Below are positions 6,487 through 63,911 of a stretch of 64,000 nucleotides of DNA, one piece after another. The position numbers were made by a program, and so were the translations under genes. Position 1 is the first letter of the stretch. Each line of letters begins with the position of its first letter. The notes below the pieces were generated by a model. The model was not told the DNA's origin, ran no database searches, and saw nothing but the letters and a program-made list of their open reading frames with translations. Source of the DNA: Actinomycetota bacterium. GTDB lineage: Bacteria; Actinomycetota; UBA4738; HRBIN12. The stretch covers positions 138,218 through 202,217 of the forward strand of contig JBBRWM010000004.1 in the NCBI GenBank assembly GCA_038249195.1, read 5' to 3'.

Positions 6487-7037
6487 TGGATGTCTACGCC
6501 CCCGACATCGAGCAGGTGCTGATCTCTGAATCGGAGATCCAGGCGAAGCTCGCGGAGATGGGCGCGCGCATCACCGAGGACTACGCAGGCGCTTCATTGC
6601 TCCTGGTGGGCGTGCTCAAAGGCGCGTTCGTGGTGATGGCGGACCTCGCGCGCACCATCGCCCTGCCGCTGGAGTTCGACTTCATGGCCGTCTCGTCCTA
6701 TGGCGCCGCCACCAAGACCTCCGGGGTGGTGCGGATCATGAAGGATCTCGACCACGATCTGGACGGGCGCGACGTTCTGCTGGTCGAGGACATCGTGGAC
6801 TCGGGTCTCACGCTCAAATACCTGCTGAAGAACCTCGCCGGCAGGAAGCCCCGCACGTTGGAGGTGGCCGCTTTGTTGCGCAAGAAGGGGATCCAGCAGG
6901 TCGAACTCGACCTGCGGTACGTGGGGTTCGACATCCCGAATGAGTTCGTGGTGGGCTACGGTCTCGACTATTCGGAGCGGTACCGCAATCTTCCCTACGT
7001 CGGTACGCTCCGCCCCGAGGCATACGGCGGACGGTGA
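6486..7037 (+). CDS. hpt: Hypoxanthine-guanine phosphoribosyltransferase
   Basis: The PRPP-binding motif 'VLLVEDIVDSGLTL' is present. The GTG start overlaps the tilS TAG stop (TAGTG). The protein is 183 aa. Confidence 0.85.
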   Translation: MDVYAPDIEQVLISESEIQAKLAEMGARITEDYAGASLLLVGVLKGAFVVMADLARTIALPLEFDFMAVSSYGAATKTSGVVRIMKDLDHDLDGRDVLLVEDIVDSGLTLKYLLKNLAGRKPRTLEVAALLRKKGIQQVELDLRYVGFDIPNEFVVGYGLDYSERYRNLPYVGTLRPEAYGGR

Positions 7038-7084
7038 GCCGGGGCCGGGAAACCTTCGGCGTGTCGTTCGACGTCCAAGCTCCC

Positions 7085-7471
7085 ATGTTCGCGCGGTTCA
7101 TGTCGATGATCGTCGTGGCCACCCTGATGCTCGGTGCCTGCCGGAGCCCGGCGCAGGCGCCCGCCGCCCAGTCGGGCGTGGAGGGGACCGTCACGTACGG
7201 GCCGACGTGTCCCGTGGCCCGAGCCGGGTCGCCCTGCCCCCCGCGGCCTTGGCAGGGGACCGTGCGGGCGCTCGGGCTCGACGGCGTCACCGTGCGGGGA
7301 ACGGTCGCAACCGATAAGGCGGGCGTGTTCAAGATGGACCTGCCGCCGGGCGGCTACTTCATCACGCCCGTCACCCCCGAGGGTCCGCCCACCACGAAGC
7401 TGCGCCGCCTGAGCGTCATGGCGGGCGCCTACACGTCGGTAGAGCTGAGCGTCGATACCGGCATCCGCTGA
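7085..7471 (+). CDS. Putative lipoprotein
   Basis: It has a signal peptide with the lipobox 'MSMIVVATLMLGAC'. A Gly/Pro/Thr-rich beta-type domain follows. No named family was recognised. Confidence 0.5.
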   Translation: MFARFMSMIVVATLMLGACRSPAQAPAAQSGVEGTVTYGPTCPVARAGSPCPPRPWQGTVRALGLDGVTVRGTVATDKAGVFKMDLPPGGYFITPVTPEGPPTTKLRRLSVMAGAYTSVELSVDTGIR

Positions 7472-7506: not shown

Positions 7507-9543
7507 TTGGGCTCGGGCGCCGCGCGCGTTCGGCCCGACGCATCTGCGCCACCGACCGTCACGCGCGCCCAGGGCAAGGAGGCCCCCCTGAGCAGCACAC
7601 CGCCGCGTTCGCCCCTGTCGCGAGTCGGCAGAGCCCCGACCATCTGGATCATCGTGGGGACCCTGGTCTTCCTCCTCGTGCTCTCCTTCATGAGTCGCTC
7701 GGGCTCGACCACGGATCTGAAGTTCTCGGATTTCCAGCAGCAGCTCGCGGACGGCAAGGTGGCGACCGCGCAGATCCTGGAGGGCGACCAGAAGGTGGCG
7801 GGGAAGCTGCAGGACGGGACCAGCTACACGACCACGTATCTCGCCGAGTACGCCGATGAGTTACAGGCCCAGCTGGACAAGGCCGGCGTGCCCAACTCCA
7901 CGGACGCGCAGCGCCCCAACCAGTGGATCAGCACGTTCATCACGGTCCTCCTGCCTGTGATCCTCATCGGCGGCCTCCTGTTCTGGTTCATGCAGCGGAC
8001 GCAGGCGGGGGGCGGCCGGGTCATGCAGTTCGGGCGGAGCAAGCACAAGGTGGTGAACAAGGATCAGCCGCAGACCACGTTCGCCGACGTGGCGGGGGTC
8101 GACGAAGCCGTCGAGGAACTCGAGGAGATCAAGGACTTCCTCCAAGACCCGTCGAAGTTCCAGGCGATGGGAGCGAAGATCCCGCGCGGCGTGCTGCTGT
8201 TCGGCCCTCCCGGGACGGGCAAGACCCTGCTCGCCCGCGCGGTGGCGGGTGAGGCAGGCGCTCCGTTCTTCCAGATCAGCGGGTCGGACTTCGTCGAGAT
8301 GTTCGTCGGGGTCGGGGCGGCACGCGTGCGCGACCTCTTCGAGCAGGCCAAGGCCAGCGCACCCGCCATCGTGTTCATCGACGAGATCGACGCGGTGGGG
8401 CGCCAGCGCGGCACCGGGATGGGCGGCGGTCACGACGAGCGCGAGCAGACGCTGAACCAACTCCTGGTCGAGATGGACGGGTTCGACCAGCGCAGCACGG
8501 TGATCCTCATGGCGGCGACCAACCGACCCGACATCTTGGACCCGGCGTTGCTGCGTCCCGGCCGCTTCGACCGCCAGGTCATGATCGACCGACCAGACCT
8601 GGAAGGGCGCAAGGCGATCCTGCGCGTCCACGCGAAAGGCAAGCCGTTCGACCGAAGCGTCGACCTCGACGTGCTCGCGCGGCGCACGCCCGGATTCACG
8701 GGGGCAGATCTCGCCAACGCGATCAACGAGGCGGCGCTGCTGGCCGCGCGTCGGAACAAGCGGGCGATCACGATGGCGGAGATCGAGGAGGCCGTCGACC
8801 GGGTGATGGCGGGTCCCGAGCGCAAGACGAGGGTCATGGACGAGCAGGAACGGCGGTTGATCGCGTATCACGAAGGGGGACACGCCATGGTCGCCCATGT
8901 CTTGCCGAACACCGACGAGGTCCACAAGATCACGGTCATCCCGCGGGGGCGCGCACTCGGCTACACCCTCACGCTTCCCGAGCAGGACAAGTTCCTGATG
9001 ACGCGCGAGCAGCTGCGCGACGAGCTCGCCATGCTGATGGGCGGGCGCGTCGCCGAGGAGATCGTGGCGGGCGACGTCACCACGGGCGCCGGGAACGACA
9101 TCGAGCGCGCCACAAAGGTCGCCCGGCAGATGGTGACCGAGTACGGGATGTCCGACATCATCGGTCCGCGGACGCTCGGCGTGAAGCAAGGCGAGGTCTT
9201 CCTCGGCCGCGACTGGGGATCCACACCGGACTACTCGGACGCGGTCGCGTTCGAGATCGATACCGAGGTCCGTCAGCTGATCGATGAGGCGCACGATGTC
9301 GCCCTCGACATCCTCAGCGAGCATCGCGACAAGCTCGATGCCCTCGCCAAGATCCTCGTCGAGAAGGAGACGCTGGATCGGGACGAGGTGGTCTCGTTCT
9401 TCTCCGACGTCGCGCGTCGGGAGCCTCGTCCGTCGGAGGAGCGCGGTCACTCGCTGGCGGTGAGCCGTCGGGCCATGCGAACCCCCAAGACGCGGCCCTC
9501 GTCGCCGGGCACCCTCGGGGATCCGGGACTCGCCCCCGCGTGA
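7507..9543 (+). CDS. ftsH: ATP-dependent zinc metalloprotease FtsH
   Basis: It has an N-terminal TM region. The Walker A is '[19 protein letters not shown]', the SRH region is '[19 protein letters not shown]', and the HExxH motif is 'HEGGHAMV'. The start codon (TTG at 7507 in the track) is uncertain. The C-terminal tail is extended. Confidence 0.9.
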
Positions 9544-9559
9544 TCTCGGACGGCCGATC

Positions 9560-10225
9560 GTGACGGACGAGCGGTGGGCCACGTTCGACTGCTACGGCAC
9601 CCTGGTCGACTGGTTCGGCGGCGTGCGCACGACGGTGGCCCGACTCTGGCCGGAGGCCGACGCCGACCTGCTCCTGGCCGACTATCACGAGATCGAACCC
9701 ACCGTCCAGGCCCGGCGCGGCGTTGCCTATCGGCAGGTGATGGCGGAGGCTCTCGCCGGCGTCGCGGAGGCCGCCGCGCTCGAGATCCCCGATGGGGGAT
9801 CGGATGCCCTCGCGGTCGGGTTGCCGGCGTGGCCCGTCTTCCCCGAAGTGCCCGGAATCTTGCGTGAGCTCCGAGGGCGGGGATGGATGCTCGGGATCTT
9901 GTCGAATACGGACGCCGACCTTCTCCAGGCGTCGCTGGACGCCATCGGGGTCGCGGTTGACGTGCGCATCGTGGCTTCGGAGGTCGGCAGCTACAAACCG
10001 GCGTTCGCTCACTGGGAGGCGTTCTTCGAGGGCACGCGGGCCGACCGCGCGCGGCACGTGCATGTCGCGGCGTCGTTGTTCCACGACGTCGAGCCGTGCG
10101 CGCAGCTCGGCCTTCCGTGCGTCTGGATCAACCGGCGCCGCGAGACCAGTCGGTTGCCACGCGCGGGGGAGCTGGCCGACCTGCGGGCGCTCCCCGACAC
10201 CCTCGAGGCGCTGGTTCCGACGTAG
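9560..10225 (+). CDS. HAD-superfamily hydrolase (haloacid dehalogenase type II-like)
   Basis: The N-terminal motif is 'ATFDCYGTLVDW' (DxYGT). Downstream HAD motifs are 'ILSNTD' and a conserved Lys region. Confidence 0.75.
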   Translation: MTDERWATFDCYGTLVDWFGGVRTTVARLWPEADADLLLADYHEIEPTVQARRGVAYRQVMAEALAGVAEAAALEIPDGGSDALAVGLPAWPVFPEVPGILRELRGRGWMLGILSNTDADLLQASLDAIGVAVDVRIVASEVGSYKPAFAHWEAFFEGTRADRARHVHVAASLFHDVEPCAQLGLPCVWINRRRETSRLPRAGELADLRALPDTLEALVPT

Positions 10226-10272
10226 CCGATCCCTTCACGCCCCGGGCCCGTCCGCTCTACACTCGTGCGGGC

Positions 10273-10809
10273 ATGGACGGAATCGGACAACGCGATCTGT
10301 ACGGGATCCTGGGAGTGGCCCCGGAGGCCTCCGATGCGGCGATCCGCCATGCGTATCGGACCCTGGCGCGCCGCTATCACCCGGATCTGCACCCCGACGC
10401 GAAGGACGACGAGTTCCGACGGCTGGCCGCCGCCTATCGCGTCCTCGGCGACGGGGGGCGACGCCGCGCGTACGACCGCGAGCGTCGAAGCCCCGGGGGG
10501 ATCGGCGGGCCGACCCCCGAGCGTTGTGCACCCGCACCCGGGGGGCGCCCCGCTCCCATGCGCGATGTCCAGACGGACGCCTCCATCCCCGCGACGAGCC
10601 CGCCCACGGACGAGTGGAGGATCCTGTCACGGGTGGGCACGGTGCTGATCGCTTCGGTGCTGGCCGCCATCATCATCGTCGTCGCCGCCGCGCTCGTGCT
10701 CGGAGGGGATCACGCCATCCTCACCTTGCCGGGCGGCACCTCCGACCAGATGTGCCAGACGCCGGACGGTTGGGTCGATTGCCACATCTTCGACGCAGCC
10801 ACGCCTTGA
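10273..10809 (+). CDS. DnaJ (J-domain) protein with C-terminal transmembrane segment
   Basis: The J domain 'DLYGILGVAPEASDAAIRHAYRTLARRYHPDLHPD' carries the HPD triad. A TM helix 'VLIASVLAAIIIVVAAALVLGG' lies near the C-terminus. The start was taken at the internal Met to avoid a 130-nt overlap with the upstream gene. Confidence 0.7.
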   Translation: MDGIGQRDLYGILGVAPEASDAAIRHAYRTLARRYHPDLHPDAKDDEFRRLAAAYRVLGDGGRRRAYDRERRSPGGIGGPTPERCAPAPGGRPAPMRDVQTDASIPATSPPTDEWRILSRVGTVLIASVLAAIIIVVAAALVLGGDHAILTLPGGTSDQMCQTPDGWVDCHIFDAATP

Positions 10810-10837
10810 CCGTGGTCGGCGCCGCTAAGATGCCCGC

Positions 10838-11413
10838 GTGAGCGAGCGCTTCGACGAGGACAAGATCGCCGACGGCGTACGACTCATCCTCGAAGGTATC
10901 GGAGAGGACACGGGACGCGGCGGCTTGAAGGAGACGCCTCACCGGGTTGCGCGCATGTATCGGGAGATCTGCGCGGGCGTGGGCGAGGACCCCACCCGAC
11001 TGGTCACGGTCGTCGAGGGCGCCGACTTCGACGAGATGATCATGGTTCGCGACATCCCGCTCACGTCTCTTTGCGAACACCACCTCATCCCGTTCAGCGG
11101 GCGGGCGCACGTGGCCTATGTCCCCAACAAGGCGGGGCAGATCACCGGGCTGTCGAAGATCGCCCGAGTGGTGGACGTGCTCGCGAAGAAGCCGCAGGTG
11201 CAAGAGCGCCTCACCACCGAAATCGCGAACACGATCGAGCGCGCGCTGGACCCACGCGGCGTCTTCGTGGTGATCGAGGCGGAGCATCTCTGCATGACCA
11301 TGCGGGGGATCAAGAAGCCCGGATCCGTCACGGTCACCTCCGCCGTGCGGGGTTTGTTCCGCACGGACGCGCGGACGCGTCAGGAGGCCATGACCCACAT
11401 CCGCGATCGCTAG
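10838..11413 (+). CDS. folE: GTP cyclohydrolase I
   Basis: The conserved '[19 protein letters not shown]' and '[10 protein letters not shown]' motifs are present. Confidence 0.95.
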
Positions 11414-11454
11414 CCCACACGCGTCCCGCCGGGCCCGGCAGCCGCGCGACTACG

Positions 11455-12321
11455 ATGGATGACATGGCCGAGGCCTCCATCTGGCGGTGCCGTGACCGCG
11501 ACCTCCGCTCGGGGGCCCGCACGCTCGTCATGGGCATCGTCAACGTCACGCCCGACTCGTTCTCCGACGGCGGCCGCTTCGAGGGTGCCGACGATGCCAT
11601 CAAGCGCGGGCTCCAGCTGATCGCGGACGGTGCGGACATCCTGGACATCGGGGGCGAATCGACGCGCCCCGGCGCGGATCCGGTGTCGGTCGAGGAGGAG
11701 CTCGCCCGGGTCCAGCCGGTCATCCGCGGCCTGCGCCAGGAGTCGCCCGGTATCCCGATCAGCGTGGATACGCGCCATGCCGCCGTCGCCGCCGACGCCA
11801 TCGTGGCCGGCGCAGACATCGTGAACGACGTGAGCGCCGCAGCGGATCCGGCGATGCTCCCGATGGCCAAGCAGACCGGCGTCGGCCTGGTGTTGATGCA
11901 CATGCGAGGCGAGCCCAAGACCATGCATCTTGGGCCGCGCTACCAGGACGTGGTGGCCGAGGTCCGGGACTTCCTCGCCGCGCGACTCGGTGCTGCGGTG
12001 GCCGCCGGCGTCCCCCGCGCGCAGCTCTGCGTGGACCCCGGCATCGGGTTCGGCAAGGACCTCGCGCACAACCTCGCGTTGCTCCACGGCGTGGGGACCT
12101 TCGCCGGCCTCCGGGTCCCCGTGCTGGTGGGGACGTCGCGCAAGCGATTCATCGGCGAGCTCACGGGAGTCGAGGATCCCGTCGACCGCGTCGAGGGAAC
12201 TGCGGGGGCGGTCGCCTGGTGCGTGACGCAGGGCGTGGACATCGTACGCGTCCACGACGTGAAGGAGATGGTGCGCGTCGTCCGCGTCGTGGACGCGATC
12301 GCCCGAGGGTCCGCACCGTGA
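11455..12321 (+). CDS. folP: Dihydropteroate synthase
   Basis: The pterin-binding motif 'VMGIVNVTPDSFSDGG' is present. The start is at the internal ATG (MDDMAEAS). Confidence 0.9.
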   Translation: MDDMAEASIWRCRDRDLRSGARTLVMGIVNVTPDSFSDGGRFEGADDAIKRGLQLIADGADILDIGGESTRPGADPVSVEEELARVQPVIRGLRQESPGIPISVDTRHAAVAADAIVAGADIVNDVSAAADPAMLPMAKQTGVGLVLMHMRGEPKTMHLGPRYQDVVAEVRDFLAARLGAAVAAGVPRAQLCVDPGIGFGKDLAHNLALLHGVGTFAGLRVPVLVGTSRKRFIGELTGVEDPVDRVEGTAGAVAWCVTQGVDIVRVHDVKEMVRVVRVVDAIARGSAP

Positions 12322-13650: not shown

Positions 13651-14160
13651 GTGGACGCGTACCTCGGGATCGGTTCGAACCTGGGGGACCGCCTGGGCAT
13701 CCTCCAGGCCGCCGTGAACGCTCTGAACGCGGAGGTCGGGGTCGCGGTGGCGGCCTCGTCGCGGGTCTGGGAGACCGATCCCGTGGGCGGTCCTCCCCAA
13801 CCGGATTTCTTGAACGCGGTCCTTCGCGTGCGCACGGTGCTCGAGCCGATGGCGTTCCTGGAGGCGTGTCAGCGGGTGGAGGCGGCGCTGGGCCGGGTCC
13901 GCGACGTGCCGTGGGGTCCACGCACCCTCGACATCGACATCGAGCTCATCGGCGCCTTGGTGCTGGACGAACCCGCGCTCACGATCCCCCACCCGCTCAT
14001 GACCCAGCGCGCGTTCGTCGTCCTGCCGCTGTTGGAGCTCGATCCGGATCTCGTGCTGCCCGGCGGAAGCCGTCTCGTTGATCTCGCCCTCGGTCCCGAC
14101 GCGCTCGAGGGCGCCCGTCCATTCGCTCCGCCGTTGCGCGTGAGCGCGGTGCACGCGTGA
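13651..14160 (+). CDS. folK: 2-amino-4-hydroxy-6-hydroxymethyldihydropteridine pyrophosphokinase (HPPK)
   Basis: HPPK motifs 'AYLGIGSNLGDRL' and 'GPRTLDIDIEL' are present. The GTG start lies 8 nt after the folB stop. Confidence 0.85.
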   Translation: MDAYLGIGSNLGDRLGILQAAVNALNAEVGVAVAASSRVWETDPVGGPPQPDFLNAVLRVRTVLEPMAFLEACQRVEAALGRVRDVPWGPRTLDIDIELIGALVLDEPALTIPHPLMTQRAFVVLPLLELDPDLVLPGGSRLVDLALGPDALEGARPFAPPLRVSAVHA

Positions 14161-15500
14161 GCGTCGAGCGTCTCTGCCTGCGCTGCGACTGGGCGGGTGT
14201 GACGGTCGCGAGCATCTGCCCGTCCTGTGGCGCCACGCTGTTCCGTCCCGTGTCCTCGACCTTTCCCGACACGAGCGCGACGAGGTCGGGCGACCGAACC
14301 GCGCCGGCGCCCGCCGCCCCGCCTGCCTCCACGCCGCCAGCCGACGACGCGCGAGATGCCCGACACGGCGCCCGGTCGCGGGGGCCGGCCAGGACCGCGC
14401 CAGGGGCGGCCGTGGCCGTGGCCTTCGTGGCGGCCGCGATCGTGGCCGCGGGGGCCTTCGCGTGGATCCGCGTGCACACACCGCCTCCGGCCTCGCCCGC
14501 CACGGGATTGTCCGGTCGACTGGTCTACGCCGTCGCCGACGGCGACGGGTGGTCGCGCCTGTGGATCTGGGACCTCGCGGCGAACGATCCGCACGAAGGC
14601 CCTCGGGTCCGGGAGCCGGTCGAACTCGTGAACGCCTACGGGGCAGGCGCCGGTTGGATCGGCGTCACGTCCCGCCGGGACGATGGCCGGTTCACCGGAG
14701 GCGTTCTGCGCAATCTCGACCCTACCGACCAGGCGACGCCGCTGCTCACCGCGGACCTGATGGCGTGGGGCGCCCGGGGTGAGAGCATCGCGGGCGTGCG
14801 ACGAGCCGGGGGCGTCGGCTGCGGGCATGTCAAGGTGATGTACGCGGGGCTGGTCGCTCCGACGGGAACCGAGGTGCGCGTGGATCGGCGCCTCTGCGGA
14901 GACGTGCTCACGGTCGGCCGCGACGACTTGCGCACGTACCTGACGCTGCGTCACGGGCCGCGCCAACGCATCGTATTCGCGGGCCTCGGCCGGTTCCACC
15001 GCGTGCTGGATGGCTATGCCCTCGCCGCGGTATCGCCCGCGGCCGACATGCTCGTGGTTCCCGCGAGCGGGCGCGCTGGGGCGCCGTCATGGCCGTCCAC
15101 CGCCCAGCCGCACGGGCGCCCTCGCGGTGGGAAGGGGGCCGGGCTGTTCTTCCGTGGTCTCGGGATGCATGGCGCGATCGCCTACGGCGGTCCCGCCGAT
15201 GCCTTCAAGCTCGACGGCGTACTCGGGTGGTCCTCGGACGCGTCGATCGCGCTCGTGACGGGCCGGCTGGGGGACCGTTGGGGCATCTTCGAACTCGACG
15301 CCGGCCCGTCCGCCGGGCAGGGCTCACCCCGCTTCCTCGGCCCCATCAACGGCGGGACGTTCGCCACGTACACCGACGGCGGGACCGGGATCGTTGACAA
15401 CGCAGGAACCTTGTCGACGCTCACAGGCGGGCGGTTGACACCGCTGACGCCCCCCGCGGGGGCGCCGACGCCGACCGGCCCCATCGTGTGGATCCGATGA
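14157..15500 (+). CDS. Hypothetical membrane protein with an N-terminal zinc ribbon and a large C-terminal extracytoplasmic domain
   Basis: A CxxC...CxxC ribbon 'CLRCDWAGVTVASICPSCG' sits at the N-terminus. A Pro/Ala linker and a TM helix 'AVAVAFVAAAIVAAGAFAWI' follow. The ~330-aa C-terminal domain is Gly/Trp-rich. Its start overlaps the folK stop by 4 nt. Confidence 0.5.
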   Translation: MSVERLCLRCDWAGVTVASICPSCGATLFRPVSSTFPDTSATRSGDRTAPAPAAPPASTPPADDARDARHGARSRGPARTAPGAAVAVAFVAAAIVAAGAFAWIRVHTPPPASPATGLSGRLVYAVADGDGWSRLWIWDLAANDPHEGPRVREPVELVNAYGAGAGWIGVTSRRDDGRFTGGVLRNLDPTDQATPLLTADLMAWGARGESIAGVRRAGGVGCGHVKVMYAGLVAPTGTEVRVDRRLCGDVLTVGRDDLRTYLTLRHGPRQRIVFAGLGRFHRVLDGYALAAVSPAADMLVVPASGRAGAPSWPSTAQPHGRPRGGKGAGLFFRGLGMHGAIAYGGPADAFKLDGVLGWSSDASIALVTGRLGDRWGIFELDAGPSAGQGSPRFLGPINGGTFATYTDGGTGIVDNAGTLSTLTGGRLTPLTPPAGAPTPTGPIVWIR

Positions 15501-30000: not shown

Positions 30001-30074
30001 GCCGGCGTGGCGCAGTCTGGTAGCGCAAGCGATTTGTAATCGCTAGGTCGTCGGTTCGAATCCGACCGCCGGCT
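30001..30074 (+). tRNA. tRNA-Thr (anticodon TGT)
   Basis: Cloverleaf read by hand. The acceptor GCCGGCG pairs with CGCCGGC. D-arm is GCGC...GCGC. The anticodon stem is AGCGA/TCGCT with loop TTTGTAA (anticodon UGU). T-arm is GTCGG TTCGAAT CCGAC. Confidence 0.9.
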
Positions 30075-30083
30075 CCGTGTAGT

Positions 30084-30118
30084 CATCGGGTGGATGTCCT
30101 CGATGACGACCGGAACCA
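30084..30118. repeat. Direct repeat copy 1 (catcgggtggatgtcctcgatgacgaccggaacca); the partner is at 32229..32264
   Basis: The two copies are about 90% identical and 35-36 bp long. Together they bracket the LipJ-like paralog array. Confidence 0.5.
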
Positions 30119-30156
30119 CATGTCGAAGAGGTCGGACTCGTCCGGATCCCAACGGC

Positions 30157-31515
30157 TCAGGCCGTCTCGCTCACCACCCCGTACAGGTGCCAGCGGTCGG
30201 GGACACCCTTGAGCTCATGCTCCCCGGCGTCGTCGAACGCGAGGCCTGAGCCGGCGACGAGATTCTTGACCGTCGAGGAAACGAGGACCTGCGAGGGCTC
30301 CGCGAGCCCTGCGACGCGAGCACCGACATGTACCGCCAAGCCTTGCACGTCTTCGTCGGCAAGCTCGACCTCGCCCGTGTGGCATCCGGCGCGCACTTCG
30401 AGTCCGAGGTCACGAACGCAGCGGACGATCGCTTGTGCGCATCGCACCGCGCGCGCCGGTCCATCGAAGGTGGCCAAGAGCCCGTCGCCGGTTGTGTGGA
30501 CATAGGTGCCTCGGTAGCGTTCGATCTCGGACTTCGCTCGGCTCGTATGCGCGGCCAGGACCTCCTTCCACGCAGCGTCGCCGATGGCAGCAGCCCGCTC
30601 GGTCGATCCGACGATATCGGTGAACAAGACCGTCAGGAGGATCCGATCGGGCGGTCGAGCGGCGGGACGTCCCGTGACGAACGCCTCGATCGCATCGGCC
30701 ACAGCGTCGACGGGACCGAGGTACTCAGGCGTGTCGTGCCCGGGAAGCTCGATGAGCGTTCCAGCCGGCACCCGATCGGCGACGTACCGAGAGACACCGA
30801 AGGACTCGCCCGGGTCATCCGCCCGATGAAGGACGAGCGTGGGGACGCGGATCGTCGACAGGATCGGTCGGATGTCGGTGGCCCTGTACAAGGACATCAG
30901 GGCGGCAGCACCCGTTGGGCTCGCAGCCATCTGGGTCAGCTGCAGCCCCCAGTCGAACGCATGCTCATCCCCCAGGACACTGGGGGCGGACTCGACCAGG
31001 TTCTTCCTGAACCACTCGCGGGTTCCCCAGCCGATCGCGACGCCATCGATGTACTTGTCCCACTCCTCGTCGGTCCAGCCGAACGGGTAGTCCTCGGTGG
31101 CAAGGCCACCGGGATTCATCGCGTACAGGATCAGCGCACGGGTCCGCTCGGGATGGGAGGCCGCGAACAGCGCCGCCTGATGGCCGCCTTCCTGGAAACC
31201 CGCGATCACGGCGTCCGTCGATCCCACCTCGTTCAACACGGCGGTGAGATCCTCCACGAGCACCTCGAGCGAGGGGAGGTCGCCCGGTGAGAATCGATCC
31301 GACAGTCCGACTCCTCGCCGGTCCACCACGATGAGTCGAGCGAACGACGCGATCCGACGCAAGAGATGTGCCCAGGGTGGGTAATGCCACATCCACACGA
31401 GATGGGAAACGAATCCCTCGAGGTACACGAGGTCCACAGGACCGTCGCCGACGACCTGATAGGCGATGATGGCCCCATCCGTAGCCTTCGCGTATCGAAC
31501 TTCAGGAACCTTCAC
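30157..31515 (-). CDS. Alpha/beta-hydrolase + class III adenylate/guanylate cyclase fusion protein (LipJ-like)
   Basis: The N-terminus carries an alpha/beta-hydrolase fold. The C-terminal cyclase homology domain is 'LTVLFTDIVGSTERAAAIGDAAWKEVLAAH...GTYVHTTGDGLLATF'. The GTG start is preceded by 'GGAAGGA'. Confidence 0.85.
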   Translation of the reverse strand: MKVPEVRYAKATDGAIIAYQVVGDGPVDLVYLEGFVSHLVWMWHYPPWAHLLRRIASFARLIVVDRRGVGLSDRFSPGDLPSLEVLVEDLTAVLNEVGSTDAVIAGFQEGGHQAALFAASHPERTRALILYAMNPGGLATEDYPFGWTDEEWDKYIDGVAIGWGTREWFRKNLVESAPSVLGDEHAFDWGLQLTQMAASPTGAAALMSLYRATDIRPILSTIRVPTLVLHRADDPGESFGVSRYVADRVPAGTLIELPGHDTPEYLGPVDAVADAIEAFVTGRPAARPPDRILLTVLFTDIVGSTERAAAIGDAAWKEVLAAHTSRAKSEIERYRGTYVHTTGDGLLATFDGPARAVRCAQAIVRCVRDLGLEVRAGCHTGEVELADEDVQGLAVHVGARVAGLAEPSQVLVSSTVKNLVAGSGLAFDDAGEHELKGVPDRWHLYGVVSETA

Positions 31516-31639
31516 CCTCGAATCCTTCCCCTAGGAGGGTCGCGCTGCAACCGAGCTCCCCACCATCTGCGACCCGTAGAGTTGAGAGATCAGGGTCGAG
31601 TCGCAACCAGACCGTATGTCACAAGGATGATGGTCAACC

Positions 31640-32170
31640 CGTCTCACTCATCACCTTGTACAGGTGCCAGCGGTCGGGCACGCCCTTCAGCCCGTGTTCA
31701 CCGGGCGTCCTCGAACGCGAACCCACAACCTGCGACGAGATCCTTGACCGTGGACGACACGAGGGCCTCGGACGCAGCCGCACGGTTCGATCTCATCCGT
31801 GATGTGCTCCTGATCCTTGTAAGGGAGGCGATCCTCGCCCGGGAGTTGCACGTACTCGGCGCCGAGGATGGGTTCGGCGAAGTAGCGGTTGTCGTTGGGC
31901 ATGTCCCCGGCGCGATAAATGATCAGTCGTGGGAACGTGGATCGCCGGCAGGATGGCTCGGACGTCGTTTCCGCCAGCGAACTTGATCAGCCGGAGAACG
32001 GCCAGCGTCATGAGCAGGCGCTCTTTGAGGGATCTCCCACCCCTACTCGATGTGAGAGGACCACGGCTTGAGGTAGACCATGTCCACGGGTGCGTCGCCG
32101 ACGACCTGGTGCGCGATGTGCACCCCGTCTACGGTCTTCGCGTACCGGGTCTCCGGGATCTCCTCCGGCA
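31640..32170 (-). pseudogene. Decayed paralog of the adjacent LipJ-like hydrolase-cyclase gene, with an internal deletion and frameshifts
   Basis: The N-terminal fragment 'MPEEIPETRYAKTVDGVHIAHQVVGDAPVDMVYL' matches 'MKVPEVRYAKATDGAIIAYQVVGDGPVDLVYL' of the intact copy and is followed by a stop. Downstream pieces match in shifting frames ('DVRAILPAIHVPT', 'IYRAGDMPNDNRYFAEPILGAEYVQLPGED'). The C-terminal remnant 'ALVSSTVKDLVAG' is also recognisable. At 31640-31700 the DNA is ~80% identical to the 3' end of the intact gene. Confidence 0.6.
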
Positions 32171-32228
32171 TCCTGACCTTCCCCACCCACCCGGCGGCAA
32201 GGGCTGAGGCCCGCGACGCCGAGAAGTC

Positions 32229-32264
32229 CATCGGGTGGACGTCCTCGACCGACGACCGGAACCA
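32229..32264. repeat. Direct repeat copy 2 (catcgggtggacgtcctcgaccgacgaccggaacca)
   Basis: This is the partner of 30084..30118. Confidence 0.5.
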
Positions 32265-32325
32265 GCACCTCAAGCCTGTCAGCCACGATGCCGATGTTCC
32301 GGTGGTCGGACGGGCATCGGCGCTC

Positions 32326-32396
32326 GCGTACGTAGCGCGACGTACGCAAGCTCAGGGAATCGCGGAATTCCCGGGCGGGATCGCCCGCCGTACGGT
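32326..32396. promoter_or_regulatory. Cluster of inverted repeats upstream of the Tad-like operon
   Basis: Three palindromes lie within 70 bp and about 100 nt upstream of the TadE-like start. They are GCGTACGT-AGCGCG-ACGTACGC, GGGAAT-CGCGGA-ATTCCC and GGCGGG-ATCG-CCCGCC. A fourth, CCGTACGG, follows. The hexamer CGTACG recurs three times. Confidence 0.3.
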
Positions 32397-32463
32397 TTCG
32401 GCGGACGGGACGAGCGGACCATTTGGCCCGGCGTTCGGGCGGATGAGGACGGAGAGGACACCC

Positions 32464-32955
32464 ATGCACGAGCATCGCCGGCTCGCAGTGGCAGAGCGGA
32501 GGGGGCCATCGAAGGATCGTCGCGGCGCGGGCTCGCTCCGCGACGAGGGAGGCGCGGCGGCCGTCGAGTTCGCGATCGTGGCTTCTATCTTCTTCCTCCT
32601 GGTCTTCGGGATCATCGACTTCGGGTTCGGGTTCCACACCTGGAACGGGACCGCGAACGCGGCGCGCGAAGGGGCTCGGCGCGCCGCGGTCGACCCGGTC
32701 GTCGGCGACATCGTGGCCCGCACGACGCAGTCCGTCGACTACCTCGACCCGGCTCGCTTGACGGTCTCCGTCACCTGCAGCAGCGGTGGTGGCGCCTTCA
32801 CCGGTTGCCCGGCCTCCTCGGGCTGGGTGGAAGGCGATCTGGTGCGCGTCACCGTGGACTATCGGTATCAGTACCTCACGCCCCTGGGGAGCATGGTCGG
32901 CCTCGGCGACGACCTGAACCTGCACTCGGTCTCGGAAGCACGGTACGAAGGGTGA
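32464..32955 (+). CDS. TadE-like (Flp pilus assembly pseudopilin-like) protein
   Basis: The TadE-domain signature 'GAAAVEFAIVASIFFLLVFGIIDFGFG' is present. An RBS 'GGAGAGGA' precedes the ATG. Confidence 0.75.
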   Translation: MHEHRRLAVAERRGPSKDRRGAGSLRDEGGAAAVEFAIVASIFFLLVFGIIDFGFGFHTWNGTANAAREGARRAAVDPVVGDIVARTTQSVDYLDPARLTVSVTCSSGGGAFTGCPASSGWVEGDLVRVTVDYRYQYLTPLGSMVGLGDDLNLHSVSEARYEG

Positions 32956-34337
32956 GGCGCCCGCTGGCGGTTCGTCGTGGCCGGTTCTCCGAAGAGGGGG
33001 GTGCGGTCGTCGTCCTGTTCGCGTTGCTCTTGACGGTCCTGTTCGCGGCGGTCGCGTTCGCCGTCGACCTCTCCCGTCTGTATCACGAGCGCCAGGTGCT
33101 CCAGAACTCCGTGGACTTCGGCGCGCTGGCGGGCGCCCGCGAGCTGCCGGCGCAGGGATCGGTGCAGGGTTCGCTCGCCTCCGCCGAGGCGCTTCGCGTG
33201 ACGCTCGACAACGCGCCGCAGCTGACGCCGGGGCAGGTCTCGATCAACTTCCGATGCATCGTGGGCGACCGCGACGACGACGGCGCTCCTGACCTCGAGG
33301 ACGTGCCGTACGTGTGCGGGCCCACGACGGGGACGTGGGCGGCCGGTGACTGGCGCACGAAGCGTGGACGCTCGTCGCACGCCTGCGACCCGTTCGCCGG
33401 CGACAAGTGCAACACGATCCTGGTGTCGACCAGCAACGACGTCAACTACGCGTTCGCGCCCGTGATCGGGATCAACCAGGGGAACACGGGAGCGGTGAGC
33501 GCCGCATCCTGCAACGGCTCGTGCGGCGCCGCGCCATCTCCGTTGGACGTGGTGATGGTGCTCGACCGCACCGGCAGCATGACGGCCGCCGACATCGTCA
33601 ACGTCAAGAACGCGGCACTCTCGATCCTGGGGTTCTACAACTCCGCGGAGCAATGGGTGGGTGTCGCCGCCCTCCCGTACGGACTCGCGAACAAGTGCAC
33701 CGTCAACGATCCTCAGAACTACCCGGACTCCAACTACTCGGATTGGCAGACGATACCGCTGAGCAAGAACTTCTCGAACCCCGACGGGACCGTGAACATG
33801 GGGAGTCAGATCGTGCAGAGCATCAACTGCCTGCAGCGCGCCGGGAGCCCGCGCGTCAACGTGAACGGAACCAACTGGACGAAAGATGGCCATACCAACC
33901 TGGGCGATCCGCTCGACGCCGCCCGGGACATGCTCGCCCTCGAGGGGCGCGCGAGTGTCCCCGACGTGATCATCTTCGAGACGGACGGCCAGGCGAACCA
34001 GCCCCACGGCTACAACCCGTGCAACTACCTGAACAACAAGGCCAACATCGCGAAGGCCGCGGGCCAGACGATCTACACGATCGCCTACGGCCTGGACAGC
34101 CCGCCGGTGCGGTGCACGTACGACACGGGCGGGCCCTTCGTCAATGCCTACGCCACCGGAAACATCGCGGCGGCAGCCACCAGCTCGACGGATGACGTGC
34201 CCGGAGGCTGCGGGCCGAACGAGAACAAGGATGGAGACAACTACTTCTGCGTCCCGGGCAGCGCCGATCTCGAGCCTGTGTTCCGCCAAGTGGCGGAGGC
34301 CAGTGTCGGCAACGCTCGACTCGTAGATGACGTCTGA
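32952..34337 (+). CDS. TadG-like (Tad_N) protein with von Willebrand factor A domain
   Basis: The N-terminus 'GGAVVVLFALLLTVLFAAVAFAVDLSRLYHERQVLQNSVDFGALAGAREL' is the TadE/G-like Tad_N region. The vWA MIDAS motif is 'VVMVLDRTGSMT'. The GTG start overlaps the TadE-like stop (GTGA). Confidence 0.75.
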   Translation: MRRPLAVRRGRFSEEGGAVVVLFALLLTVLFAAVAFAVDLSRLYHERQVLQNSVDFGALAGARELPAQGSVQGSLASAEALRVTLDNAPQLTPGQVSINFRCIVGDRDDDGAPDLEDVPYVCGPTTGTWAAGDWRTKRGRSSHACDPFAGDKCNTILVSTSNDVNYAFAPVIGINQGNTGAVSAASCNGSCGAAPSPLDVVMVLDRTGSMTAADIVNVKNAALSILGFYNSAEQWVGVAALPYGLANKCTVNDPQNYPDSNYSDWQTIPLSKNFSNPDGTVNMGSQIVQSINCLQRAGSPRVNVNGTNWTKDGHTNLGDPLDAARDMLALEGRASVPDVIIFETDGQANQPHGYNPCNYLNNKANIAKAAGQTIYTIAYGLDSPPVRCTYDTGGPFVNAYATGNIAAAATSSTDDVPGGCGPNENKDGDNYFCVPGSADLEPVFRQVAEASVGNARLVDDV

Positions 34338-34340
34338 CAT

Positions 34341-35069
34341 GTGCGTCGGAACAGGAGGACGGAAATGAAGATGCGGAACCTCGCGCTGCCAGCGGCCTTG
34401 CTCTTGGCCGTCCTGGCGGCCGCTGCCATGCTGCTGTACACCACGACCGTGAAGCATGACGCCGCCACCGGCGGAAACACCATCGCGGTCGTGGTGGCGA
34501 CCCAGGATGTACGGGCCGGTACCCAACTCGATGGGCTCATCGACGACGGGACCCTGACCGTGCAGGAGATCCCCAAGAACTACGTCGCCCCCGGGGCGAT
34601 CACGTCGCTCGACGACCTGCGGGGCAAGACCAGCAGCCAGCCGATCGTGCGGGGCGAGCAAGTGCTGTCGAATCGCATCGCGGAGCTCGGCTCGACGCTC
34701 GGCGGCGGCCTCGGGATCCCGGATGGCTACACGGCGATCTCCGTGCAGCTGCCGACTCCTCAGGGCGTGGGCCAAGCTGTGCACCGCGGCGATCACGTCC
34801 AGATCTTCGCCACCTTCCACGGGCTGGGCAACGGATCCGAGACCAAGACGGTGACGCTGATCCCCGACGTCGAGGTGCTCGACGCCGTGGGGCAGGGGAC
34901 CGATCAGGCCAAGAGCGACAACATCCTGTTCACGTTCGCGCTCAAGCCCCTGGATGCCGGGCGGTTGACCTTCGGCATCGATAACGCGAGCGTGTGGCTG
35001 ACCTTGCTGCCGCCGGACGCCAAGGGTCAGACCATCCCGCCGGTGACGCTCGGCAACGTTTCGAAGTAA
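34341..35069 (+). CDS. Flp pilus assembly protein CpaB/RcpC family (SAF + RcpC domains)
   Basis: It has an N-terminal TM/signal 'MRNLALPAALLLAVLAAAAMLLY'. SAF-like motifs 'VVVATQDVRAGTQL' and 'PKNYVAPGAI' are followed by an RcpC-like C-terminal domain. It starts 3 nt after the TadG-like stop. Confidence 0.8.
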   Translation: MRRNRRTEMKMRNLALPAALLLAVLAAAAMLLYTTTVKHDAATGGNTIAVVVATQDVRAGTQLDGLIDDGTLTVQEIPKNYVAPGAITSLDDLRGKTSSQPIVRGEQVLSNRIAELGSTLGGGLGIPDGYTAISVQLPTPQGVGQAVHRGDHVQIFATFHGLGNGSETKTVTLIPDVEVLDAVGQGTDQAKSDNILFTFALKPLDAGRLTFGIDNASVWLTLLPPDAKGQTIPPVTLGNVSK

Positions 35070-52848: not shown

Positions 52849-53379
52849 TCATTCGTTGGGACCTTCGCCGCGGACCTGCTCGACCTTCTCCAACGCCTGA
52901 CGCAGGTCCTTCAACCAGTCCTCCTGCCGCTCGGCGACCATGCGCACGCACCAGGCGAGCGCGTGGCTCCTGCTGCGGGCGACCCCCGCGTCCACCAGCG
53001 TGTCGAGCACCTTGCGCTCGGGCATGCGCAAGCGCGTCATCGCGGGGATGGACAGCGTGGTGAACAGGTGGAGCTGGTCGCCGCATCGCGCCCCCCAGGA
53101 AACCTTGCGCCCGAAGCGGCGCTGGGCCTCGTCGGCGACCTGCATGCGCTTGCCGCGCGTGTCCTCGCGGAAGCCCGCGATCCGGGAACCGAGCGCCGCG
53201 TCCCGTGTGTCCGACGTTGCGTCGGCGGGGAGCTCGGGTTCGGGGAGCGTGCCCACGACGAGGATCTCGTCGCGATCGTTCGTGACCTCGGGCGGCCCGG
53301 CGAACCACTCGGAGGGGAGCCGGCCCGCGAACCAGCCCTGCAAGTGCTCCGCGGATGAGGTGGTCTCGTTGGGAGTCAT
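52849..53379 (-). CDS. Conserved hypothetical protein with C-terminal ribbon-helix-helix-like region
   Basis: The N-terminal 'SAEHLQGWFAGRLPSEWFAGPPEV' region looks like a conserved motif. The C-terminal 'MPERKVLDTLVDAGVARSRSHALAWCVRMVAER' has an RHH-like strand-helix-helix pattern. Confidence 0.5.
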   Translation of the reverse strand: MTPNETTSSAEHLQGWFAGRLPSEWFAGPPEVTNDRDEILVVGTLPEPELPADATSDTRDAALGSRIAGFREDTRGKRMQVADEAQRRFGRKVSWGARCGDQLHLFTTLSIPAMTRLRMPERKVLDTLVDAGVARSRSHALAWCVRMVAERQEDWLKDLRQALEKVEQVRGEGPNE

Positions 53380-60886: not shown

Positions 60887-62329
60887 GTGGAACCCCCGCG
60901 GCGTAGGCGGCGGATCCGCCGCTGGTTCGCCGCTTCGGTGGTCGCGCTCGCGGCAGCGGCGGTGCTCCCGTGGACCGGAGCCGTGTCCCCAGCGCGCGTG
61001 CTTCCCAACGTGATCATCATCCTCACGGACGACCAGACGCTCGACACGTTGCCCTCGGACCCCCCGGCGATGCCCTGGCTCCAGTCGCAGATCTTCCAAG
61101 GAGCCGCCGGCGGCTGGCGCTGGTTCCCCGACGCTATCTTGAGCACGCCACTGTGCTGCCCGTCCCGGGCCACCATCCTCACGGGCCGCTACGCCCACAA
61201 CACGGGTGTTCAGGGCAACGGCGAGGGCGAGAACCTCGACGAGTCGCAGACGCTCGCCACCTGGCTGAGCGCCGCCGGCTACCGGACCGGTTTGTTCGGC
61301 AAGTACCTGAACGGCTATCCGTGGGATCGCGGTCCCTACGTGCCTGCGGGCTGGTCGCGGTTCGTCGGCAAGAGCAACCGCGACCAGGGTCAGACCTACT
61401 ACGGCTACGAGGAGATCGATCAGGGCGTTCCCTTGTTCCCCGGCCGGGGGCCCGACGCCTACGCCACCGACCACTTCGCGGATCTCACCGTGTCGTTCCT
61501 GCGCTCGACGCCCATCGACCAGCCCTTCTTCGCGATGTATACCCCGTCGGCACCGCACGCCCCGTGGCTCCCGGCGCCTCGAGACGCGGGCGCCTTCGCG
61601 GATGCGCCCGTGCCCGTGGCGTCCCAGCGCCTCCTGAACGATGTGCGCGGCAAGCCGTTGTGGATCCGCGAGCGCCCACCGATCTCGGCCGCGCGCGCGG
61701 CGAAATACCGACGGGAGGATCGGCAAGAGCGCGCGACCCTGCTCGCCGTGGATGACGCGGTCCGGCGGATCGTCGAGACGGTAGCCGCGCGCTGGGAGCT
61801 CGATCGAACGGTGATCTTCTTCCTCACCGACAACGGCTACGCCTTCGGAGAACACCGGTGGCACGGCAAGAAATGCGCCTATGAGCCCTGCATCCGGACC
61901 CCGTTCGCGGTGCTGGCGCCCTGGGGCGGACCCGCCACCGTTCCCCAACTCGTTTCCAACGTCGATCTCGCGGCGACGGTGGCCGATCTCGCGGGCGTAG
62001 ACCCGGGGGTGCCGCAGGACGGCCAGAGCCTCGCGGCCCTCCTGGGCGCCCCAGGCGCCGCGCCACCTCCCGATCCCGCGCGTCCCCTGCTGATCGAGTG
62101 GGCCGGGGACCGGGACGTGCCGCCGTGGCGAGGGGTGCGCACGCCGAACTTCGCCTACATCGAGAACGCGGACGGGACCGTGGAGCTCTACGACCTCGGC
62201 GGCCGGCTGGGTCCGCCGGATCCCGACGAGATCCACAACGTCGCCGCTCTCCCCCGGTACACGCGCGTGCGCAGGGAACTCGCAAACACGCTGGTCGTAC
62301 TGGCTTCTCGCGGCAAAGGCGCCGAGTAG
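60887..62329 (+). CDS. Sulfatase (arylsulfatase/N-acetylgalactosamine-sulfatase family) with Arg-rich signal peptide
   Basis: The FGly-modification motif is 'PLCCPSRATILTGRY'. 'VIIILTDDQ' and 'GKYLNGYP' are also present. The N-terminus is 'RRRRRIRRWFAASVVALAAAAVL'. Confidence 0.85.
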   Translation: MEPPRRRRRIRRWFAASVVALAAAAVLPWTGAVSPARVLPNVIIILTDDQTLDTLPSDPPAMPWLQSQIFQGAAGGWRWFPDAILSTPLCCPSRATILTGRYAHNTGVQGNGEGENLDESQTLATWLSAAGYRTGLFGKYLNGYPWDRGPYVPAGWSRFVGKSNRDQGQTYYGYEEIDQGVPLFPGRGPDAYATDHFADLTVSFLRSTPIDQPFFAMYTPSAPHAPWLPAPRDAGAFADAPVPVASQRLLNDVRGKPLWIRERPPISAARAAKYRREDRQERATLLAVDDAVRRIVETVAARWELDRTVIFFLTDNGYAFGEHRWHGKKCAYEPCIRTPFAVLAPWGGPATVPQLVSNVDLAATVADLAGVDPGVPQDGQSLAALLGAPGAAPPPDPARPLLIEWAGDRDVPPWRGVRTPNFAYIENADGTVELYDLGGRLGPPDPDEIHNVAALPRYTRVRRELANTLVVLASRGKGAE

Positions 62330-62408
62330 ACTGCCGCCGAGCATGCAACAGCGCCCCGGCCCCATCCTTCGGCCCGCCCGATCCCGCCGACCTAGCCACC
62401 AGCAGGTC

Positions 62409-63911
62409 ATGCGTCGGCGCGCGTTCGTCGCGTTCGCCCTGGTCGCCCTGATCGCCATCGTGTGGTTCGTGTTCCAGCCGTTCGGTGGCGGCACCCAGCA
62501 GGCGGGTGGGAAGGCAGGCGGCACGTTCGGCGGTCAGGCGCAGGGCGTCGGCTCGGACGGATCCAACCCCGGGGCCATCGTGGCGGGGGACAACCCCATC
62601 AAGCACGTGGTCTTCATCGTCAAGGAGAACCGGACGTTCAACAACTACTTCGCCGCCTACGGCCACGGGGCCGTCGGAACCACGAGCGGGAAGACCATCA
62701 CGTGCTCGACCTCGACACACTCGTGCCAGCCGGGCGACAACTACGAGCTCACGAAGGCCCCCGACATCGCGGCGCACGACATCACGCACGGGTTCTCCTC
62801 GGGGCTGTACTCCATCAACGGCGGGCAGATGAACGGGTTCAACATCATCGGGCTGGGCGCGGACATGTCCGGCTACTCCTACTTCGACCGCGAGGGGCTC
62901 CCCGCGTATTGGAAGTATGCGGATCGTTTCGTGCTCGCGGATCATTTCTTCACATCGATGTACGGGCCCACCTTCCCCGAGCACCTCTACACCGTGGCCG
63001 CCCAGGCGTACGGGATCGTGGACAACAAGCAAACGGTGGACCACCCGGGGAGCTACTGCGACGACCCCACCGAGTTCACCCCGCATTTCCCCCTCGACAA
63101 GCTGTCCCAGCAGGACCTTGCGACCATCATGCAGACGGAGAACCACATCACGAAGGACTACCCGAACCAGCTCTTCAAGATCTCTGCCTACTGGGAACCC
63201 ACGCGCACGTGCGTGCCCATCCGCTCGCTCCCGGCCAAGTTGCAGGATGCCGGCATCGACTGGAAGTACTACGCCGAGAAGGACCACTGGATGAACGCGC
63301 TGCAGGCCATCCGCCACGATCGCAACACGCCGGCCGTATGGTCCAAGGTGCAGGACCCCGAGAACTTCATCACCGACATCAAGGACGGCAACATGCCCGC
63401 GGTGTCGTGGCTCATCCCGCCGGAGCCGTACAACGAGCATCCCGGCGACAACGATCCCAACAGCCCCTCCTACTCGCCCATCTCCGTGTGCGCGGGCGAG
63501 AACTGGACCGTGAACCAGATCAACACGGTGATGGATTCTCAGTACTGGCCGTCGACCACGATCGTCGTTGTCTGGGACGACTTCGGGGGGTTCTACGACC
63601 CCGTGAAGCCGCCCCACTACGACGTGATGGGCTTCGGGCCTCGCACGCCCGCGTTGATCATCTCGCCGTACACGCGCGCCGGGGGGAACCCGGACGGAGG
63701 GTCGGTCGACCACACGACGTACGAGTTCTCCTCCGTCCTCAAGTTCATCGAGGAGCTCCACGGCTTGAAGCCCCTCACGGACCGTGACGCACAGGCCGAC
63801 CCGCTCCGCGGAGCGTTCGACTTCACCCAGCCCCCGCGCCTGGACAAGGTCGATCTCCCGCTTCGCAGCGATTGCCCTTACGGCACGAACGCGAGCGACC
63901 TGGGCGGCTGA
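62409..63911 (+). CDS. Phosphoesterase-family protein (phospholipase C/acid phosphatase AcpA-like)
   Basis: The family motif 'HVVFIVKENRTFNNYFAAYGH' is present. There is an N-terminal TM/signal 'RRRAFVAFALVALIAIVWFV'. It is about 500 aa. Confidence 0.8.
   Translation: MRRRAFVAFALVALIAIVWFVFQPFGGGTQQAGGKAGGTFGGQAQGVGSDGSNPGAIVAGDNPIKHVVFIVKENRTFNNYFAAYGHGAVGTTSGKTITCSTSTHSCQPGDNYELTKAPDIAAHDITHGFSSGLYSINGGQMNGFNIIGLGADMSGYSYFDREGLPAYWKYADRFVLADHFFTSMYGPTFPEHLYTVAAQAYGIVDNKQTVDHPGSYCDDPTEFTPHFPLDKLSQQDLATIMQTENHITKDYPNQLFKISAYWEPTRTCVPIRSLPAKLQDAGIDWKYYAEKDHWMNALQAIRHDRNTPAVWSKVQDPENFITDIKDGNMPAVSWLIPPEPYNEHPGDNDPNSPSYSPISVCAGENWTVNQINTVMDSQYWPSTTIVVVWDDFGGFYDPVKPPHYDVMGFGPRTPALIISPYTRAGGNPDGGSVDHTTYEFSSVLKFIEELHGLKPLTDRDAQADPLRGAFDFTQPPRLDKVDLPLRSDCPYGTNASDLGG

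Follow-up and report, generated by a model that had tools for sequence, protein, structure and literature searches.

A putative TadE-TadG(vWA)-CpaB operon apart from a pilus motor: probable tip and alignment part of an actinobacterial type IV pilus

CpaL/TadG of Caulobacter is a minor pilin fused to a vWA domain, and has been modelled together with small minor pilins at the tip of the Tad pilus (PMC12607857). Such proteins need not be encoded beside the pilus motor. In Myxococcus, the genes for three of the four TadE/F/G-like Tip complexes lie at a distance from the machine genes, and the complexes act in trans (PMC12075869). Here, we describe a comparable gene set in a 64-kb stretch of the genome of an Actinomycetota bacterium (GenBank assembly GCA_038249195.1, contig JBBRWM010000004.1, positions 138,218 to 202,217), hereafter called the window. 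Downstream of rlmB and a tRNA-Thr gene, three co-directional genes on the plus strand encode a TadE-type minor (pseudo)pilin, a TadG-like protein with a vWA domain and a CpaB/RcpC-type alignment-ring protein. We consider it fairly probable that this trio is one operon for the tip/priming and envelope alignment components of a type IV pilus, most likely of the Tad class (type IVc), and that the genes for its motor, prepilin peptidase and major pilin lie at other sites of the genome.

By its build, the TadG-like protein of the window resembles Caulobacter CpaL: both consist of a pilin-like N-terminal module and a C-terminal vWA domain, and both are encoded beside a small TadE-type pilin. The vWA domain of CpaL has been proposed for adhesion or mechanosensing, and the Caulobacter proteins were modelled as a Tad tip complex. 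However, Caulobacter is a diderm with two small minor pilins, whereas the window has one TadE, its genes lie apart from any motor, and a location at the tip would follow from the published models. The Kil Tip clusters of Myxococcus xanthus (KilL/M/N) are alike in that TadE/F/G-like minor pilins, including a large TadG-like protein with a variable C-terminal domain, are encoded apart from a Tad-like machine (PMC12075869). The Myxococcus system comprises three pilins per tip in four interchangeable sets, serves predation and has no CpaB. In contrast, the window encodes only one set, made up of two pilin-like proteins and CpaB, which is fixed in the core genome of a monoderm and presumably acts in trans. 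A stand-alone Tad-type tip-adhesin module is therefore of a kind already known from these two precedents, here accompanied by CpaB, and the split arrangement is fairly ordinary. In B. breve the prepilin peptidase has a locus of its own, and M. luteus carries two tad loci (PMC6916266).

The preliminary description of this locus, made from the sequence without database searches, had proposed TadE, Tad_N plus vWA, and SAF/RcpC domains. All of these passed the curated cut-offs of Pfam and, for CpaB, of the NCBIfam equivalog TIGR03177. TadE matched PF07811 with E = 5e-17 (62 bits; cut-off 22.9). Its 30-residue basic leader is followed by G/AAAVEF, with Glu at +5 of the predicted processing site, and then by a hydrophobic helix. 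The motif G/A[AS]AVEFA is near-invariant across TadE orthologs, including those in type IVa clusters and those beside Tad loci; a few distant orthologs differ at +1 to +4. Neither TadE nor TadG matched PF07963, the N_methyl class III signal, and no NCBIfam model caught the TadE or TadG-vWA proteins of this lineage.

The TadG-like protein matched PF13400 (Tad; E = 5e-10) and PF00092 (VWA; E = 5e-8). Structure prediction with AlphaFold2 (predicted local distance difference test, pLDDT, 83) gave a helix at residues 6-62, a pilin-like beta module at 96-188 and a vWA fold in the C-terminal part (Table 1). In a Foldseek comparison, the best matches of this model were the vWA domains of CMG2/ANTXR, integrin I domains and the Gram-positive pilus tip adhesins SpaC and RrgA, with E-values down to 5e-9, and a profile search of the PDB sequences returned vWA adhesins, the fimbrial subunit Mfa5 among them. 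The motif DRTGS of the metal-ion-dependent adhesion site (MIDAS), which had been noticed in the sequence, is indeed present. None of 22 TadG homologs with 52-90% identity departs from D205, S209 or D345, all have T or S at position 207, and T315 is retained in almost all of them. The D-x-S/T-x-S, T, D pattern of a MIDAS is complete. Twelve cysteines are also invariant in these 22 homologs, which suggests six disulfide bonds in a protein that would be extracytoplasmic. The N-termini are conserved family-wide, with Gly17 retained.

Hundreds of TadG homologs were detected, nearly all labelled Actinomycetota where a source was named. The family is modest in size, with 153 clusters at 50% identity and E ≤ 1e-30. 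Some relatives in the representative library share only residues ~8-250, the pilin module, and extend to at most about 1000 amino acids with other C-terminal parts. Hence, the tip domains look modular. A minor pilin with a vWA/MIDAS adhesion domain is also known from a monoderm pilus, that of Streptococcus sanguinis (PilB; PMC6916266, PMC12075869). PilB differs in having an N_methyl (PF07963) class III signal and belonging to a type IVa system, whereas the N-terminus of the window protein is of the Tad/TadE type.

CpaB (open reading frame, ORF, 34341-35069) matched PF16976 (RcpC; 2e-10) and PF08666 (SAF; 1e-8), and scored 79.6 bits against TIGR03177, for which the cut-off is 71. Its AlphaFold2 model, with a pLDDT of only 72, shows an N-terminal membrane helix, a SAF-like domain and a beta (RcpC) domain. 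The best PDB match of the model was RcpC of the Tad alignment complex (9GZR; E = 4.6e-10). This relation was found by fold comparison only, as a phmmer search of the PDB sequences with CpaB gave no match. RcpC of Pseudomonas aeruginosa assembles into a dodecameric alignment ring that lets the filament pass (PMC12307814). In both proteins, an N-terminal membrane helix precedes the SAF-like and RcpC domains. They differ in sequence, with 19% identity over the structural alignment, and P. aeruginosa RcpC docks on the secretin, a component absent from monoderms.

The layout of the three genes is consistent with a single transcription unit. The stop codon of TadE and the start codon of TadG overlap by 4 nt (GTGA), as the preliminary description had read. 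It had also reported a gap of 3 nt before CpaB, which applies to the start codon GTG 34341 only. CpaB most likely starts at ATG 34365: the sequence AGGAGGA lies at 34353-34359, five bases ahead of this codon, and a database protein of 234 amino acids with 100% identity (P0241) begins at the same point. With ATG 34365 as the likelier start, the gap is 27 nt. The 3' end of CpaB lies 22 nt from the stop codon of a convergent P450 gene. A scan for the sigma-70 consensus upstream of TadE found no match, and promoter and terminator consensus scans were uninformative. The sigma-70 result carries little information because the host is a high-GC actinobacterium (GC of the window ~69%).

As the preliminary description had stated, pilus machine genes were not detected near the trio. 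Pfam scans covered nearly all coding-like ORFs called up to 62.3 kb, apart from a few that include the last one (about 62094-63911). They returned housekeeping or unrelated genes only, with no sign of a T2SSE ATPase, a T2SSF platform, an A24 peptidase, TadZ, Flp or an N_methyl pilin. Pfam, a motif scan and tblastn (E ≤ 0.1) likewise gave no TadA/CpaF-type T2SSE ATPase in the window, and Pfam and tblastn gave no TadB/TadC platform (T2SSF), ParA-like TadZ or TadV/CpaA A24 peptidase. The tblastn queries were verified PilB/T/C/D/M and TadZ/A/B/C/V proteins from related loci, none of which matched the window at this threshold. Three Flp queries matched nothing in the window except, at chance level (E = 0.006), the N-terminal helix of TadG. 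A six-frame scan for the Flp-type motif G-xxxx-E[YF] returned only the site of TadE itself. We also looked for a hidden or decayed flp ahead of TadE and for remnants of tadZ behind CpaB, and found neither. Hence, no tad locus was detected within about 30 kb on either side of the trio.

A comparison of neighbourhoods in related Actinomycetota showed that the trio belongs to a conserved chromosomal region. Our homolog scan took one genome per species and yielded 58 loci, in which the sequence was read 10 kb to either side (loci are cited by L numbers). The gene order radA-carD-PIN/TRAM-ispD-ispF-rlmB-TadE-TadG(-CpaB)...histidine kinase-DUF3263-LytR_C-response regulator-Rrf2-acs recurs in more than 12 species of an uncultured clade of Actinomycetes (L001, L006-8, L013, L015, L016, L019, L024, L037, L041 and L059; in part L022 and L023). 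The closest locus, L006, lies on a 2.66-Mb contig of the metagenome-assembled genome (MAG) MFD04944.bin.1.51 and is 96-98% identical across the trio. Relative to L006, the ratio of nonsynonymous to synonymous substitution rates (dN/dS) was 0.08 for TadE, 0.06 for TadG and 0.03 for CpaB, compared to 0.11 for rlmB; relative to more distant species it stayed below about 0.5. The trio is under strong purifying selection. It is part of the core genome and vertically inherited, and is neither accessory nor decaying. In several loci from long-read MAGs (L004, L005, L013, L041 and L043-L047), TadE or TadG is split over reading frames. These splits are most likely assembly indels, and the apparent pseudogenes in these MAGs should therefore not be read as decay.

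This contrasts with the preliminary description, which had placed the trio in an accessory-looking stretch. The accessory look belongs to a neighbouring insert, since this insert alone is strain-specific and the region upstream of TadE is conserved (Table 1). The DNA alignment with L006 restarts exactly at 32266, past the insert, and runs with 95% identity over 32266-33000. We rejected an accessory island that includes the trio, because the synteny of these genes with rlmB and the histidine kinase extends over more than 12 species.

TadE lies directly upstream of TadG in all 55 loci with upstream sequence. This universal adjacency, with the 4-nt overlap, may at most be taken as indirect support for a joint incorporation at the tip. 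Four types of context were seen for the pair: (i) the rlmB-histidine kinase site that it occupies in the window, (ii) an eno/ppx...fba housekeeping site, (iii) a type IVa-like cluster, and (iv) a position beside a Tad locus. In context (iii), found in L033, L032, L036 and L047 (TadG 50-55% identical), the pair is embedded in a PilB/T/C/D/M cluster in the order pilB-pilT-pilC, three N_methyl pilins of which one has a PKD domain, tadE-tadG, pilD, a helix-turn-helix gene and pilM. Sister type IVa clusters (L071, L072) have an equal gene order without the pair. This points to an insertion in one subclade, which branches early in a quick neighbour-joining tree of the family without support values. 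A small and a large gene before pilD in L071 and L072 were considered as diverged TadE/TadG and rejected, as a hidden Markov model (HMM) built from the TadG-family alignment A1 did not match them; they correspond to the third pilin of L033.

Context (iv) holds distant homologs with 28-35% identity. In Propionicimonas (L055), the vWA-TadG pair is divergent to a full flp-cpaB-tadZ-tadA-tadB-tadC-tadV locus; in L058 and L060, the Tad locus beside the pair was matched by tblastn only. The genes for the platform (TadB/TadC), TadZ and the peptidase (TadV/CpaA) are all present beside the distant homologs in these three loci. Stand-alone Flp genes, with no other tad gene nearby, were found 6-8 kb from two orphan pairs. 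One lies at 17773-18030 of L021, 6.4 kb from the pair (Pfam Flp_Fap, 3e-14), and the other, recognised by its motif only, lies at about 19280-19470 of L039. The stand-alone Flp of L021 indicates that dispersed Flp-type genes exist in the lineage, and Tad-type genes appear to be scattered in it. Cultured Nocardioides (L048-L051, about 9400-11480; N. lacusdianchii, N. furvisabuli and others) have a homologous pair, ~30% identical and with the vWA domain, which is an orphan located immediately upstream of groEL and near DUF3263. Both groEL and DUF3263 are also found near the trio in the window, which suggests an old regional synteny. The orphan state is thus old, because the pair is an orphan in cultured Nocardioides as well.

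CpaB is more restricted than the pair. It has just 17 detectable relatives, follows the pair directly in the loci of only eight species (L006-8, L015, L022, L023, L037 and L041), and is patchy within the syntenic clade. The three relatives of CpaB that are not orphans and whose neighbourhoods were examined (L065, L067, L068) all lie in flp-tadE-tadG-cpaB-tadZ(-tadA) operons, in which tadE-tadG-cpaB is exactly the order of the trio. These operons and the Propionicimonas locus also share the 4-nt tadE/tadG overlap and the TadE motif with the window. Their CpaB proteins are 26-41% identical to that of the window. The window differs in having no flp upstream and no tadZ/A/B/C/V downstream. Moreover, no vWA domain was detectable in TadG of L065, L067 or L068, and the L065 protein aligns with the window's TadG over the N-terminus only.

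We therefore read the trio as that portion of an actinobacterial Tad operon which serves the tip and the alignment, split from its motor and kept functional, since TadE-TadG adjacency is universal and the nearest non-orphan relatives of CpaB lie in canonical operons. In such a system, TadE would be synthesised as a prepilin, which an A24 peptidase would cleave after Gly30, leaving a mature N-terminus with Glu5. The TadG-like protein would act as a modular minor pilin, whose N-terminal helix and pilin-like module pair with TadE. The TadE-TadG complex could start filament assembly and end up at the pilus tip, where the disulfide-rich vWA domain would offer its MIDAS for ligand binding or force sensing. 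CpaB, anchored by its single membrane helix, might ring the filament on the outer face of the membrane.

Several observations weigh against this reading of the trio as a split Tad tip. Within the 64 kb read, no motor, peptidase or major pilin is shown for this genome. TadG has Leu, Ile or Val at +5 instead of Glu, so that its own processing and incorporation are uncertain. Most of the 55 loci carry the pair as an orphan in housekeeping contexts. No secretin, the known partner of RcpC, is expected in a monoderm actinobacterium, and Pelicic (2019) held that RcpC is absent from monoderm Tad systems (PMC6916266). Yet, CpaB/RcpC proved a regular member of the five Tad loci that we examined, arranged as flp-(tadE-tadG)-cpaB-tadZ-tadA... 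in Propionicimonas (L055), an Actinomycetota MAG (L060) and three metagenome contigs (L065, L067, L068), which runs counter to this earlier generalisation for monoderms. The partner machine, furthermore, need not be Tad, because the same pair is found inside a type IVa cluster in a sister subclade. Among the explanations offered in the preliminary description, the use of a Tad machine encoded elsewhere thus emerges as the best supported, from selection, synteny, the prepilin motif and gene order. A different function for Tad minor-pseudopilin-like proteins, which it had also suggested, is possible.

An alternative explanation might be that the same module serves a type IVa-like pilus (PilB/PilT/PilC/PilD/PilMNO), to which TadE and TadG, with or without CpaB, would add extra minor pilins and a tip adhesin processed by PilD. 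The embedded pairs lie between N_methyl pilins and pilD and have the same TadE cleavage motif as the window. Such clusters are also very common in related MAGs (PilB with ≥85% identity in at least 120 clusters among the matches listed), and Actinomycetota have both Tad and type IVa systems, sometimes in one genome (PMC13091076). In contrast, the pair is missing from other type IVa clusters of this lineage, and its embedding is limited to one subclade. CpaB is a Tad-specific component that accompanies none of the embedded pairs, the gene order of the trio is that of Tad operons, and no type IVa gene is shown for the window's genome. Taken together, a type IVa partner seems rather unlikely, and the presence of CpaB, the order of the operon and the Flp gene of L021 favour a Tad partner. 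A broader variant is that the pair is a portable tip cassette tied to no single class of type IV machine, used in the clade of the window by type IVa pili or shared between type IVa and Tad pili, with CpaB as an envelope ring without secretin; we regard this as possible, if doubtful. It is also conceivable that the module acts independently of pili, with TadG held in the membrane by its N-terminal helix to display the vWA domain, TadE and CpaB as membrane partners, and neither filament nor motor. The orphan pairs in housekeeping neighbourhoods, those of cultured Nocardioides included, the missing Glu5 of TadG and the lack of machine genes within about 30 kb would fit such a role. However, the near-invariant prepilin-peptidase site of TadE, with its Glu5, is hard to explain without processing and incorporation into a filament, which makes a pure surface role less likely. 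Where neighbours are informative they are always pilus genes, either Tad or type IVa, and the fold of CpaB is that of a ring surrounding a filament (PMC12307814). We therefore consider a pilus-independent role unlikely.

The preliminary description had also raised the possibility that the trio is the remnant of a lost tad locus. In a historical sense this may hold, as the operon is split: the gene order equals the 5' half of complete operons, flp and the motor genes are absent locally, and CpaB has been lost in several syntenic relatives. A non-functional remnant left after the loss of flp and tadZABC, by contrast, is highly improbable. All three ORFs are intact, their dN/dS values are as low as or below that of rlmB, the MIDAS, the 12 cysteines and the cleavage site are conserved at 50-90% identity, and the position is kept across many species. 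Decay was rejected on the dN/dS values and the invariant residues.

The trio lies in a typical actinobacterial housekeeping region. The window contains the run tilS, hpt, ftsH, fol genes, panC, coaX, lysS, clpC, radA, carD, ispD, ispF and rlmB, and beyond it acs, groEL/ES and molybdenum cofactor genes. A 36-bp direct repeat (30084-30118 and 32229-32264, 92% identical) flanks the strain-specific insert between the tRNA-Thr gene and the trio. The 96%-identical relative L006 lacks this insert, which does occur in the Logan contig L064 of the same strain. L064 and a second short Logan contig, L070, came from exact-protein look-ups and add no sequence outside the window. Three further ORFs in housekeeping operons, at 14157-15500 (+), 7034-7471 (+) and 52849-53379 (-), look coding and had no Pfam match at E ≤ 0.01. 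The first, of 447 amino acids, sits between folK and the DUF2520/panC genes, and for the last, of 176 amino acids, the families Rv1265_N and Mb1296_C are recorded in the same-strain contig L070.

Table 1. Features of the trio and its surroundings; positions refer to the window, except for the last row.
Feature	Position	Strand	Evidence or remarks
tRNA-Thr(TGT)	30001-30076		after rlmB, ahead of the trio
Strain-specific insert, 2.19 kb	30079-32265		directly 3' of tRNA-Thr(TGT); DNA comparison of window and L006
Intact alpha/beta-hydrolase-adenylate/guanylate-cyclase gene	30157-31515	-	within insert
Decayed paralog of the cyclase gene, internally deleted, with stop codons	about 31640-32162	-	within insert
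Upstream region of the putative operon (promoter/5' untranslated region)	32266..32463	+	conserved; GGAGAGGA ribosome-binding site right ahead of TadE ATG
TadE-type minor (pseudo)pilin, 163 amino acids	32464..32955	+	PF07811
Predicted prepilin-peptidase processing site of TadE, G30/AAAVEF, Glu at +5	32551..32571	+	sole such motif in the window
TadG-like vWA protein, whole gene	32952-34337	+	PF13400 and PF00092
TadG-like protein, N-terminal part (residues 1-190)	32952..33521	+	basic leader, conserved G17, hydrophobic alpha-1 helix, pilin-like beta module
TadG-like protein, vWA domain (residues 198-458)	33543..34325	+	PF00092; fold comparison
MIDAS residues	D205-x-T207-x-S209 33564-33578; T315 33894-33896; D345 33984-33986	+	DRTGS in the sequence
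CpaB/RcpC-type alignment-ring protein, 234 amino acids	34365..35069 (alternative GTG start 34341)	+	PF16976, PF08666, TIGR03177
Type IVa-like cluster with the pair	L033 869-13625		uncultured Actinomycetes MAG; pair just before pilD

If the trio is indeed the tip and alignment part of a split Tad system, it would be the actinobacterial counterpart of the recently described Tad tip modules, with the genes for a conserved vWA tip adhesin and its partner pilin kept away from those of the motor. The split arrangement would then be old and stable in a widespread clade of uncultured soil Actinomycetes, and the Nocardioides version would offer a tractable model. The association of the pair with type IVa clusters is the one point worth following up: the capture of a Tad-type pair by a type IVa cluster makes the exchange of minor-pilin tip complexes between pilus classes testable, and a portable cassette, if real, would mean that Tad-type minor pilins are used across classes. 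In the annotation of genomes, an orphan set of TadE, TadG and CpaB should not be taken as a sign of a degraded locus.

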